DNA of 9,181 nt, taken from the IMG/VR virus record IMGVR_UViG_2548877011_000016; one strand, 5' to 3'. Positions 3,610 through 5,981 of this stretch are shown here, one piece after another. The position numbers were made by a program, and so were the translations under genes. Each line of letters starts with the position of its first letter. Position 1 is the first letter of the stretch. This stretch comes from a virus (lineage: Duplodnaviria; Heunggongvirae; Uroviricota; Caudoviricetes). The notes under the pieces were generated by a model. It saw only the letters and a list, made by a program, of their open reading frames with translations, was not told where the DNA came from and did no database searches.

Positions 3610-5008
3610 ACAGCGGGCGCACGTCATCACCGTCAATAACGATTACGCCATCATTTTCCAGCTTGTACAGCCAGCGCCGGAAGTGCTTCATCTCATACCC
3701 CAGCTTTTTCATATCGTCGCGGAGAAGGGCGATAGTGCACGCCTCCCCGTGTGCTGTTCGTGTTCTGATGCACTGCCATAGCGCGGCGTGATTCTCCGTC
3801 TTGTTCCCTGCCTCCTCGATGCGCTCCAGTTCAACGGGAGGGCGCGGCTTATCCACCACCACCAGCGACGTGATTAACTCCCCGTCAGCGTCGGTAAAAA
3901 GCTCCACCACGCGTAAGTCATATGCTGCTTCTTTGAGTTCCTCCGCGTCCTTCATTTTGGTACATGAGATAACCAGCGCTTCGCTGCCTGCGTCCTCCCT
4001 GCGTATCCGGTATTCGGCGTCCAGTGATGCACGAAATGCACTGGAACCACGCGCCCCCTTTGTTTCATCCTTGCCGGAATGGTGAACCACCAGCACCGTT
4101 GCCCCTGTGCGCCGTTTCAGTTCGTCACACCCACGGATAAACGCCCCCATATCACGGGAATCATTTTCATCATTGCCGCCAAAGCAGCGCGCCAGCGTAT
4201 CCAGAATAATCATTCGAACCGGTTTACCCGTTTCCCGTTCCACCTGACGGGCAGCGATAACCATTTCCTCAACATCAAGCGGGGCAGCCGGAAAGATGGG
4301 ACGGTTTACCAGATACAGATTTTTCACCTGCTCACCGTGCACAACCTCCCAGGCTTTTACACGACGCGGAACGCCGATACCGCCTTCACCAACCACATAG
4401 AGAACAGCGCCATGCGCCACCCTGCGGCCTCCCCACTGGCGGCCCGTGGAAACGTGACACGCCCACGAACCCGCAAGGAACGATTTATATGAACCGCTCG
4501 CCCCGTATATGCTGCACAGCGATACCGCCGGAATAATCCCCTTAACCACGTAATCAAGTTGTGTGTCGTATCCGGCAGATCCCACGCTCATTGGTAGCGT
4601 GGTTTTTCGCTGGTGGTGTTTTTCTTCCCCTGGCTTTTTCCCCCGCTCCCGTTCCAGATATTCGCGCCAGTTCTCCCGCTTCTGGCTGTGCATCCCTTCG
4701 GGGTAATAATTCGCATCAGTTACACCCGCCGCCGCCAGCTTGTGCGCAATGGCATTAATATTTGATGGCCTGATGTGGCCTGCCTTGTACAGCCGGACAC
4801 AATAGCGCCCCTCGTCGATGATTCTCAGGTCTGCCAGTTCATCCAGTTGATCATCAGCCAGCACAACGGGAGGCACATTATCGCCAGCCAGTCGCCCGTC
4901 CTGTTCCTGCCACTGTTTCGCATGTGCCCAGGCATCACTACCCGCAAAAATAATGACTTCGGTCATCTTGTCGTAAGGCTGTTTTTTTAAGTTCGGTGCG
5001 CTTTTCAT
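3608..5008 (-). CDS. Replication helicase, RepA-like RecA-fold hexameric ATPase (AAA_25-type), with N-terminal domain of uncertain primase-like function
   Basis: ATG at 5008 is preceded by AGGGG with a 6-nt spacer and overlaps the upstream stop (ATGA). The C-terminal two-thirds (LDYVVKG...GASGSYKS...VRMIILDTLARCF...ATVLVVHHSGKD...ARGSSAFRASLDAEYRI) follow the motif order of RSF1010 RepA-type helicases (Walker A, Walker B hhhhD, HHxxK, RGSS) by recall. The Walker A is atypical (Tyr where the Gly before Lys is expected). Confidence 0.8.
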   Translation of the reverse strand: MKSAPNLKKQPYDKMTEVIIFAGSDAWAHAKQWQEQDGRLAGDNVPPVVLADDQLDELADLRIIDEGRYCVRLYKAGHIRPSNINAIAHKLAAAGVTDANYYPEGMHSQKRENWREYLERERGKKPGEEKHHQRKTTLPMSVGSAGYDTQLDYVVKGIIPAVSLCSIYGASGSYKSFLAGSWACHVSTGRQWGGRRVAHGAVLYVVGEGGIGVPRRVKAWEVVHGEQVKNLYLVNRPIFPAAPLDVEEMVIAARQVERETGKPVRMIILDTLARCFGGNDENDSRDMGAFIRGCDELKRRTGATVLVVHHSGKDETKGARGSSAFRASLDAEYRIRREDAGSEALVISCTKMKDAEELKEAAYDLRVVELFTDADGELITSLVVVDKPRPPVELERIEEAGNKTENHAALWQCIRTRTAHGEACTIALLRDDMKKLGYEMKHFRRWLYKLENDGVIVIDGDDVRPL

Positions 5009-5304
5009 TTCTTGCCCCTGAATCCGTTAACCATGGTTTTCAGCTTCTGGATGTTTGCCCGTGCCCTGGCGTTGCTGGTGGGCACGTTATGCGGCGCGGT
5101 CTGTACCAGAGAAAAATCACGCCGGAACTGATAAACAGGCATCACGCAATCATATTCGTAACCTTCACGGCGGTAGGTTACGCGCCGTTCTTCCACGCCC
5201 TTAATCATTACCGTGCCACCGTACTGGTCGCGGTAAATATCACCGCGCGTAAATTTAGGGTGAGTGTTGCCACTGGCAGTTAAGCCAGAATATTTAAGTT
5301 TCAT
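5005..5304 (-). CDS. Hypothetical protein (99 aa)
   Basis: Minus-strand ORF whose stop overlaps the helicase start (ATGA), with GGAG upstream. No family recognised. Lies in the early operon. Confidence 0.5.
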   Translation of the reverse strand: MKLKYSGLTASGNTHPKFTRGDIYRDQYGGTVMIKGVEERRVTYRREGYEYDCVMPVYQFRRDFSLVQTAPHNVPTSNARARANIQKLKTMVNGFRGKK

Positions 5305-5309
5305 TATTT

Positions 5310-5543
5310 TTATTCTCCGGTGTGCTGTTCTTTATATCTGTCGTGCAATAGATCTATTTCTTGCAGTTCCATTATTACAGGCTCAAGAAGCGTTATTAAT
5401 GCCGTGACAATTCTTGATTTTTGTTTGTCGCGTTCATTGTCGCCAAGTGTTTCAAGCCATATGCGCAATATTTCGTACATACCTTCAGCGTAAGCAAGGG
5501 CACTAAATGCGCGGTCTATTGTTTCGTGGTAAATATCACGCAT
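5310..5543 (-). CDS. Hypothetical protein (77 aa)
   Basis: ATG at 5543 sits 1 nt after the upstream stop (TAA at 5545-5547), with a G-rich stretch upstream. Helical, charged composition; no family recognised. Confidence 0.5.
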   Translation of the reverse strand: MRDIYHETIDRAFSALAYAEGMYEILRIWLETLGDNERDKQKSRIVTALITLLEPVIMELQEIDLLHDRYKEQHTGE

Positions 5544-5544
5544 A

Positions 5545-5766
5545 TTAATCCCCGTCCGTTGTTTTTCTTAAAACAGCTTCTGTCACGAAATCAGCATAGT
5601 TAGCGGCAATATCAAGAATATTTAGCCCTGTATCTCTGTGCTCATCAGTGCAAAGAAAGAAAAAAGCCACCCGCATAATTTCAGATATTGACGAAAGCGC
5701 ATCAGCCGCATCATCAGGAACGCCGGAAAATTCTTGTTTCAGGGAATTAAAACGATCATCACGCAT
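5545..5766 (-). CDS. Hypothetical acidic protein (73 aa); its start lies immediately 3' of a G9 homopolymer
   Basis: ATG at 5766 is preceded on the minus strand by GGGGGGGGGTT (plus-strand C-run 5769-5777). It overlaps the 3' end of upstream gene 5739..5981 by 28 nt in a different frame. Confidence 0.5.
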   Translation of the reverse strand: MRDDRFNSLKQEFSGVPDDAADALSSISEIMRVAFFFLCTDEHRDTGLNILDIAANYADFVTEAVLRKTTDGD

Positions 5767-5981
5767 AACCCCCCCCCATTTTCACAATCAGCAACAAGAA
5801 TATTTTTAGCGTCATTCAGCGACCGCGTTGCGATGTATCGGATACATTCCAGGGCGAACTGTGTCCGGTCTTTCTGTTCTTCTCCCTGCGCAAGCTCTGC
5901 AGTGCATTCAATATCGATAAGCGCGTGCATCAGCGTAGTGAGCGCGGCGGCTGCTGCGTCCGGTGTGGTTTTATTGCACAT
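5739..5981 (-). CDS. Hypothetical protein (80 aa from the ATG at 5981); 3' end contains the G9 tract
   Basis: ATG at 5981 is preceded by AGGAGG with a 6-nt spacer and overlaps the stop of the Icd-like gene by 11 nt. The C-terminus ...ENGGGLCVMIVLIP is encoded across the G9 tract. The track ORF 5739..6023 starts at an upstream codon without an RBS. Confidence 0.5.
   Translation of the reverse strand: MCNKTTPDAAAAALTTLMHALIDIECTAELAQGEEQKDRTQFALECIRYIATRSLNDAKNILVADCENGGGLCVMIVLIP
5769..5777. repeat. Homopolymeric C9 (G9 on the coding strand) at the junction of two overlapping ORFs
   Basis: Nine consecutive C at 5769-5777 on the plus strand. One extra G would fuse ORF 5739..5981 in frame with ORF 5545..5766. 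Confidence 0.9.

Follow-up and report, generated by a model that had tools for sequence, protein, structure and literature searches.

We analysed a 9,181-nucleotide stretch of viral DNA (IMG/VR record IMGVR_UViG_2548877011_000016, hereafter the window), in which the minus strand encodes four small open reading frames (ORF1 to ORF4), flanked by an Icd-like gene and the gene of a replicative helicase. The window is the reverse complement of a ~8.7-kb phage satellite of Escherichia coli of the phage-inducible chromosomal island (PICI) type, and the region of the four ORFs is securely identified as the small-protein segment of the early operon of this island. Starting from the integrase at one end, the genes follow each other in the order small ORF, AlpA-like helix-turn-helix gene, a segment with isrK and C4 RNA elements, Icd-like gene, the four ORFs, helicase, iteron-type origin, small terminase and capsid-family gene. 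The element is small and unites a terminal integrase, an alpA-type regulator, a replicase with an iteron origin and packaging genes, while tail and lysis genes are absent. The same layout has been described for PICIs of Gram-negative bacteria (PMC6092414; PMC10111431), and two related elements, EcCICFT073 and EcCIEDL933, are inducible (PMC6092414; 10.1101/2022.09.08.507074). The genome of E. coli 2013C-3277 is 99.9% identical across the queried cluster, and its match carries the integrase, the helix-turn-helix gene, the Icd-like gene, the RepA helicase, the small terminase and the capsid gene, adjoining tRNA-Pro.

The chain opens with the Icd-like gene (5971..6162, minus strand, 63 residues), its first translated gene, which matches NCBIfam NF033153 (phage_ICD_like, E 1.4e-15) as well as phrog_29966 and phrog_1743 and has a strong GAGGAGG Shine-Dalgarno sequence. 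Its stop overlaps by 11 nt the ATG start of ORF1 (5739..5981, minus strand, 80 residues, isoelectric point (pI) 4.5, phrog_5146), which in turn overlaps ORF2 (5545..5766, minus strand, 73 residues, pI 4.3, phrog_24341 with E 3.2e-43) by 28 nt, so that ORF1 ends out of frame within ORF2. A single nucleotide (TAA-T-ATG) separates ORF2 from ORF3 (5310..5543, minus strand, 77 residues, pI 4.8, phrog_2196 with E 3.9e-40), and 5 nt separate ORF3 from ORF4 (5005..5304, minus strand, 99 residues, pI 10.2), a member of the RgdR family (DUF4222). The stop of ORF4 overlaps the helicase ATG by 4 nt (ATGA); the helicase itself (3608..5008, minus strand, 466 residues) belongs to the RepA family (Pfam AAA_25, E 2.6e-43; phrog_2850; RefSeq 'helicase RepA family protein'). 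Shine-Dalgarno-like sequences are present for ORF1 (AGGAGG), ORF2 (the G-run), ORF3 (GGGGA), ORF4 (GGAG) and the helicase (AGGGG), and in a scan of the minus strand no promoter- or terminator-like site stands out inside the cluster. The Icd-like gene, ORF1, ORF2, ORF3, RgdR and the helicase form one tightly coupled chain downstream of a C4/isrK RNA element like those of P4 and P1. A sequence-only reading of the window had described four coupled, near-abutting ORFs with ribosome-binding sites, located in a P4- or PICI-type early region between an Icd-like gene and a helicase, and the junctions, the start signals and the two family matches bear out both the description and the placement.

All four ORFs are matched by PHROG families of unknown function (E 2.5e-12 to 3.2e-43). 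Where the sequences have diverged enough, all four have ratios of nonsynonymous to synonymous substitution (dN/dS; Nei-Gojobori method, against eleven related loci) of less than 1. ORF1 gives 0.38-0.43 with divergent alleles and 0.67 in one further pair, ORF2 gives 0.27-0.34, ORF3 gives 0.16-0.39 in divergent pairs and ORF4 gives 0.14-0.38; the helicase has 0.11-0.24. The four ORFs are under purifying selection and conserved as coding sequence, a point on which the sequence-only reading had made its proposal depend. The cluster occurs, whole or in part, in 1356 of 5426 complete E. coli genomes, and its exact proteins are found in hundreds to at least 1000 contigs. In related islands the interval from the Icd-like gene to the DUF4222 gene holds up to five recognised small ORFs, most commonly three, and in two loci none. 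These ORFs belong to some eight families (s76, ORF1/ORF1b/s74, s121, ORF2, ORF3/ORF3b, s61, s63, s70) that occur in mosaic combinations, and the ORF1/2/3 array is met with helicase-type as well as primase-type replicases. In charge, the acidic ORF1-3 contrast with the strongly basic RgdR. The small genes belong to the conserved core of these islands, where they make up a mosaic array, and are not variable cargo. The segment is an ordinary, widespread part of a known type of element.

The G tract between ORF1 and ORF2

At the junction of ORF1 and ORF2 lies a homopolymer of nine C on the plus strand (5769..5777), which reads as G9 in the coding sense. The family phrog_2512 (154 residues) spans this junction, its first half covering ORF1 and its positions 78-146 covering ORF2. 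The length of the tract sets the state of the gene: the two frames are fused with G7, G10 and G13 and separate with G6, G8, G9 and G11. In the window and in the locus L001, G9 yields a split gene with an ORF1 of 80 residues; G8 (L002) also splits it, into an ORF1 of 73 residues that ends in an 8-nt ATGCGTGA overlap, and G7 (L004) gives a fused protein of 154 residues. Fused relatives span 144-154 residues with linkers GG, GGG or GGGG, the last being the form from which we infer G13. A virtual G10 fusion is 100% identical to a natural protein of 145 residues (P0001) present in 152 contigs, and the G7 fusion of the same allele, with 144 residues, is present in 258. This allele is most often split, each of the two split forms of ORF1 being present in at least 1000 contigs.

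Over 37 junctions we counted G6 once, G7 12 times, G8 14 times, G9 six times, and G10 and G11 twice each. Several lengths occur in both allele backgrounds of ORF1, and the same protein allele is met in the G7, G8, G9 and G10 states. Complete genomes likewise contain all lengths from G7 to G10, with G7 the commonest (net ~357 for G7, 179 for G8, 167 for G9 and 20 for G10, which are approximate counts because the '>=99%' identity band includes truncated right-flank matches). By lineage, G7 is associated with O157:H7 and G8 with the CFT073/Nissle group. The tract has the sequence features of a phase-variable (contingency) homopolymer locus, a run of at least seven identical bases in a coding region whose length is polymorphic among near-identical alleles. 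ORF2 retains its own start, and in one related locus (L009) it stands alone behind a different module.

Altogether, ORF1 and ORF2 are the N-terminal half, a predicted helical hairpin, and the C-terminal half, also predicted to be helical, of one two-domain acidic gene. Since the two are halves of a single gene split by a homopolymer-length frameshift, the cluster comprises three genes, and the earlier count of four does not stand. In our reading the tract is an indel-prone linker that tolerates fusion as well as coupled translation. For annotation this calls for caution, the same gene being listed as one or as two 'hypothetical proteins' in thousands of genomes, and the fusion and fission driven by the homopolymer are a natural hint that both halves work together. 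Database searches returned no match for the fused ORF1-2 profile among PDB sequences at E <= 10 and none for ORF2 by tblastn in 50,697 phage records. That ORF1, ORF2 and ORF3 might be paralogous helical hairpins found no support when the four profiles were compared by hhalign, the best pair being the N against the C half (P 0.0099 over 13 columns). A second homopolymer junction was seen in relatives (L002 6960-7030 against L008 2961-3031, and L018), where A8 separates the s76 ORF from ORF1 and A7 yields a single protein of 145-146 residues.

ORF3, RgdR and the replication initiator

A profile search of 1.84 billion representative proteins with ORF3 returned only 12 clusters, so the family is confined to these elements. 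ORF3 belongs to a very narrow family of acidic proteins that, judging from their sequences, are probably helical. Its alleles differ almost solely in residues 14-23 (window 5475-5504), which read SALAYAEGMY or LALSHSENM[LM], the remainder being nearly invariant. In close pairs dN/dS reaches 0.8-1.7, a value derived from only ~15 substitutions that are concentrated in these residues, and the patch may be either a specificity surface or a recombination patch. Of 92 loci, 79 have an ORF3-family gene as the nearest gene upstream of DUF4222. The co-variation between ORF3 and DUF4222 (Spearman 0.40; 0.21 between DUF4222 and the replicase) could arise from simple linkage, and we do not use it as evidence.

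ORF4 matches Pfam DUF4222 (PF13973) with 85.7 bits (E 1.6e-24; gathering threshold 27), its residues 16-68 covering positions 1-53 of the 53-position profile. In the literature the domain leads to RgdR (PMC10877973; PMC3378721), a 99-residue protein of O-island 51 of enterohaemorrhagic E. coli (EHEC) O157:H7, whose family is that of Flockhart et al. 2012 (PMC3378721). The sequence-only reading had found none of the four ORFs to belong to a nameable family; this applies to ORF1-3, which have no described function and no Pfam or NCBIfam match, and not to ORF4. ORF4 shares 93% identity with C1493 of CFT073 and 81% with RgdR of EHEC (ECs1581). It has the same length of 99 residues as these two, the same Pfam family and the same position directly upstream of the replicase of its island, and differs from them in its N- and C-terminal tails. 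O-island 51 is the capsid-forming PICI (cf-PICI) EcCIEDL933, in which the replicase that follows RgdR is of the DUF927 type, whereas here it is a RepA-family helicase; the packaging module of EcCIEDL933 is also much longer than that of the present island. The conserved core of RgdR comprises residues 20-68, in which the RGD tripeptide 20-22 and K35 matter for its activity (PMC3378721). ORF4 carries R20, G21, D22 and K35; across the family G21 and D22 are invariant and R20 is variable. ORF4 is thus an RgdR-family protein.

RgdR is an activator of the LEE1 promoter and of type III secretion and a repressor of motility; it also raises Congo-red binding, and its DNA binding is weak and non-specific. 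C1493, which can functionally replace ECs1581, likewise activates LEE1/type III secretion and represses motility (PMC3378721). According to Fillol-Salom et al. 2018, all analysed E. coli PICIs encode RgdR (PMC6092414). The AlphaFold2 model of ORF4 (mean predicted local distance difference test score (pLDDT) 71.6, with 85-90 for residues 20-66) consists of a five-stranded small barrel (20-66), a disordered linker and a basic C-terminal helix (77-96). The barrel is predicted to be of the Tudor/SH3-like fold class. Identity is only 10-17% to bacterial Tudor-like domains that interact with RNA polymerase (the C-terminal domain of UvrD/PcrA, the N-terminal domain of CarD/CdnL and the RID of Mfd) and to the KOW domains of NusG/Spt5, and equal fold scores come from FeoA, eukaryotic Tudor domains, DUF1653 and VapX. 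The Tudor-like match thus gives a fold class and is not evidence of shared function. A profile search of PDB sequences with ORF4 gave no match at E <= 10, and a fold search of BFVD returned only uncharacterised phage proteins and DUF1653.

We collected 95 loci with a DUF4222 gene, namely the window, 10 genomic loci of E. coli, Shigella and E. albertii, 3 lambdoid phage records, 80 IMG/VR contigs and 1 near-identical genome; a scan of IMG/VR supplied the contig loci, and a scan of GTDB with too-strict patterns gave two. In all 95 the DUF4222 gene directly precedes a replication initiator, which is of the primase type in 53, a RepA helicase in 32, of the DUF927 type in seven and lambda-O-like in three. 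The two genes overlap in 93 of them, by 4 nt in 91 loci and by 11 nt in two. Identical DUF4222 proteins are paired with different replicase families in four cases, which makes a specific protein-protein partnership unlikely: the association is with the replication module as a position and not with a particular replicase protein. Furthermore, the rep gene and ori of EcCICFT073 are reported to suffice for plasmid maintenance (PMC6092414). Taken together, the pairing at the level of the module and the sufficiency of rep and ori argue against a dedicated replicase cofactor and would favour a role directed at the host. RgdR is catalogued as a virulence regulator of EHEC, yet its invariant overlapping position in front of four unrelated initiators, in satellites and lambdoid phages alike, points to a primary role in the life cycle of the element itself. 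As a label, 'virulence regulator' probably captures a side effect of a core function in satellites or phages. In the lambdoid phages vB_EcoS-733R5 and KpnBHU6, DUF4222 ORFs of 59 residues, unannotated as such, overlap the start of replication protein O (L013 3980-4159; L014 295-474); the record of L013, and that of L012 with the same DUF4222 ORF, annotate an ORF on the opposite strand at this place, and L014 has no annotation.

The surrounding island and its regulatory region

The island is integrated beside tRNA-Pro, with yejM on one side and yejO on the other, and measures ~8.7 kb from tRNA-Pro to yejO in the locus L001. Its terminal gene is the integrase (9181-7940, minus strand). After the integrase, as in all related loci, lies the AlpA-like helix-turn-helix gene (7237..7443, minus strand; phrog_66 with E 7.9e-07 and weak Pfam Phage_AlpA/HTH_17 matches), the presumed activator of the satellite cycle. 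At the opposite end a capsid-family gene of 308 residues (969-1895, minus strand) is followed by ~470 bp up to the end of the island, which adjoins the C-terminal end of the yejO autotransporter pseudogene (10-498, plus strand). Just downstream of the helicase gene is a putative replication origin (3397..3609), made of CTCCCCAC(T) iterons in two clusters that flank an AT-rich stretch (repeat families D1, D2 and D5). The layout is that of the PICI ori in PMC6092414, and the CTCCCCAC iteron region is probably the replication origin of the island.

Upstream of the Icd-like gene lie the gene of a C4-type antisense (immunity) RNA (6217..6304, minus strand; Rfam RF01695, 73.8 bits, gathering threshold 45) and an isrK-type RNA element (6326..6402, minus strand; Rfam RF01394, 66 bits, gathering threshold 50). 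The promoter and terminator scan placed a promoter-like site (6438-6409) in front of isrK and a terminator-like hairpin (6348-6330) inside it. With the icd/kil-like ORF downstream, C4 and isrK reproduce an immunity arrangement of the P4 CI/seqA or P1 immI type. A 46-nt direct repeat with 76% identity (6109-6154 and 6469-6514) brackets both RNA genes, its downstream copy overlapping the start of the Icd-like gene; each copy includes CCUUGUACA, a potential pairing partner of UGUACGGGG in the C4-like RNA. Divergently oriented within the regulatory region is a gene of 63 residues (6666-6857, plus strand), assigned to the YlcI/YnfO family through the near-identical RefSeq locus, which may encode a repressor of the early operon. 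In the corresponding interval of one related island (L011), a single minus-strand gene is annotated, as a HicB-family antitoxin.

Function of the segment and its relation to known systems

We favour, with moderate confidence, a reading in which the region is an early-operon segment of a PICI with three products, a two-domain acidic protein split by G9, ORF3 and a host-directed RgdR. In the integrated state, the RNA element would keep read-through low. On induction, ribosomes would translate the whole chain, so that the small proteins would be made together with the replicase. RgdR, with its predicted Tudor-like barrel and basic tail, would act on the transcription or nucleoid machinery of the host and not on the replicase, either by contacting RNA polymerase or by counter-silencing DNA repressed by H-NS. 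Such an action would account for the influence that close orthologues are published to have on LEE1, motility and Congo-red binding. For the acidic, putatively helical proteins we propose a role as binding partners or inhibitors of host or helper proteins, and the homopolymer would only decide between one chain and two coupled chains for the halves of ORF1-2.

Several points weigh against this account. Confidence is low (pLDDT 54.5) in the model of fused ORF1-2, two helical hairpins joined by a glycine linker, and the folds that it matches are generic helical hairpins. The connection of RgdR to H-NS or RNA polymerase is drawn from published phenotypes and is not a result. Moreover, deletion of rgdR in EHEC has a phenotype without induction (PMC3378721), which implies that expression is not fully gated or that basal levels are enough. 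As to the sufficiency of rep and ori, the source does not state whether the clone excluded the rgdR homologue (PMC6092414). Regulation by the C4-like RNA is suggested by the Rfam matches and by analogy with P4 and P1, and the duplex energies of the C4 RNA with its targets gave no signal above shuffled controls. In the literature searched we found no paper on the function of ORF1-3 or on the G tract.

ORF1-2 and ORF3 could instead be effectors directed at the helper, that is, antirepressors or interference proteins against a helper prophage like P4 epsilon and P1 Ant. Both of these are encoded directly downstream of a C4/CI RNA and an icd/kil segment, and the architecture matches that of the P4 left operon, in which ORFs overlap by 8 nt. 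Also in favour are the small size and low pI (4.3-4.8) of ORF1-3, the mosaic make-up of the array from allelic modules, and the patch 14-23 of ORF3, whose dN/dS of 0.8-1.7 for close pairs would be in keeping with recognition of different helper proteins. This high ratio stems from very few substitutions, however, similarity to P4 epsilon, orf151 and orf106 is missing, and neither PADLOC nor, for ORF2, the 50,697 phage records gave a match. In addition, the helper is described to induce E. coli PICIs through alpA and not the reverse (PMC6092414; 10.1101/2022.09.08.507074). We regard this explanation, which takes up an earlier suggestion of helper interference, as possible but doubtful. That RgdR, and perhaps ORF3, assists the replicase in initiation at the origin, for example through origin opening, transcriptional activation of the origin or the recruitment of host factors, seems to us unlikely. 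In line with such an accessory module, DUF4222 overlaps the initiator start in 93 of 95 loci, whether the initiator is a RepA helicase, a primase, DUF927 or lambda-O-like, the ORF3 family lies just upstream in 79 of 92, and RgdR is basic with reported non-specific DNA binding (PMC3378721). Against it stand the pairing of identical DUF4222 proteins with unrelated replicase families, the plasmid maintenance reported for rep and ori of EcCICFT073 (PMC6092414) and the published phenotypes of RgdR, which concern host transcription (PMC3378721). None of the ORFs showed homology to routine replication accessory proteins, an outcome that would have spoken against the sequence-only reading.

Two further explanations concern the G tract and the integrity of the island. 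As an adaptive switch, through phase variation or programmed frameshifting, the tract would set the ratio of fused to separate ORF1/ORF2. Lengths from G6 to G11, and G13 by its linker, occur among near-identical alleles and in both ORF1 backgrounds, an A7/A8 run toggles the s76/ORF1 junction in relatives, and G8 recreates the 8-nt ATGCGTGA overlap found at other junctions in the array; judging from the sequence, slippage by -1 in G9 or by +1 in G8 would produce the fused protein. Yet all three frame states are common and the lengths, within approximate counts from complete genomes, look lineage-stable, which fits neutral indels at a tolerant linker, and we consider a switch very unlikely. To the view that the frameshifted ORF1/ORF2 and their neighbours are pseudogenes of a defective island we give next to no credence. 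It can appeal to the truncation of the frame by G9, to RefSeq, which marks the neighbouring Icd-like and ash-family genes of the near-identical island as frameshifted or partial, and to the shortness of the island with ~470 bp unannotated between the capsid-like gene and the yejO pseudogene. But dN/dS is below 1 for all ORFs, ORF2 has its own start and stands alone elsewhere, the split forms are the commonest of this allele with at least 1000 contigs each, and the integrase, helicase, origin and small terminase are intact.

The host-directed reading can be carried further, to a version that we rate as distinctly unlikely. DUF4222/RgdR would then be a core Tudor-like factor of PICI and lambdoid replication modules that engages RNA polymerase or H-NS-silenced DNA and so licenses transcription-dependent origin firing and late expression, with the effects on LEE1 and motility being collateral. 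ORF1-2 and ORF3 would be its modulators or effectors directed at host or helper, their stoichiometry and fusion tuned by hypermutable homopolymers (G6-G13; A7/A8).

The sequence-only reading had seen in the four ORFs the most likely place in the window for an undescribed system, with helper-phage interference or anti-defence in mind. None of them looks like a new defence or anti-defence system: PADLOC-DB gave no family at E <= 0.1 for fused ORF1-2, ORF3, ORF4, the Icd-like protein or the helicase, and the NCBIfam and Pfam searches for ORF1-3 and the comparison with PDB sequences, in which ORF3 was not searched, yielded no supporting match either. With the segment placed in a well-known type of element and one gene named, this candidate is removed. 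RgdR was already named and partly characterised, and the other three polypeptides are without described function. What is left are two modest curiosities, the homopolymer-driven fission and fusion of a gene and the invariant junction of DUF4222 with the initiator, and the overall significance is modest only.

The closest parallels are found in P4 and P1. The left operon of P4 consists of orf88/vis, the CI RNA within the eta/kil ORF, epsilon, orf151, orf106 and the alpha primase-helicase. It shares with the present island the order of an AlpA-like gene, a C4/CI-type RNA inside a kil/icd-like ORF, overlapping small ORFs and a replicase. In P4 (L095 7440-8584) the cI ORF, epsilon and orf151 are chained by 8-nt overlaps, much like the small ORFs here. 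Nevertheless, hidden Markov model (HMM) searches and hhalign revealed no significant similarity of ORF1-4 to epsilon (Pfam 'Derepression', PF25738), orf151 or orf106 (DUF5375). The best comparison, of DUF4222 with the N-terminus of orf151, reached an hhalign probability of 8-16%, orf151 itself being without a Pfam match; this N-terminus (GEIYR...RRKFSIL) is faintly like the DUF4222 core. The island also differs from P4 in the family of its replicase and in its gene content, lacking psu, sid and delta and possessing a PICI-type small terminase and capsid module.

In the immI region of P1 (c4 RNA, icd, ant), translation of icd is coupled to expression of the antirepressor. Like immI, the island has a C4-family RNA in front of an Icd-like gene, the end of which reaches into the following gene. 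The two part ways further downstream, where P1 encodes Ant proteins of 30-40 kDa and the island its four small ORFs and the helicase.

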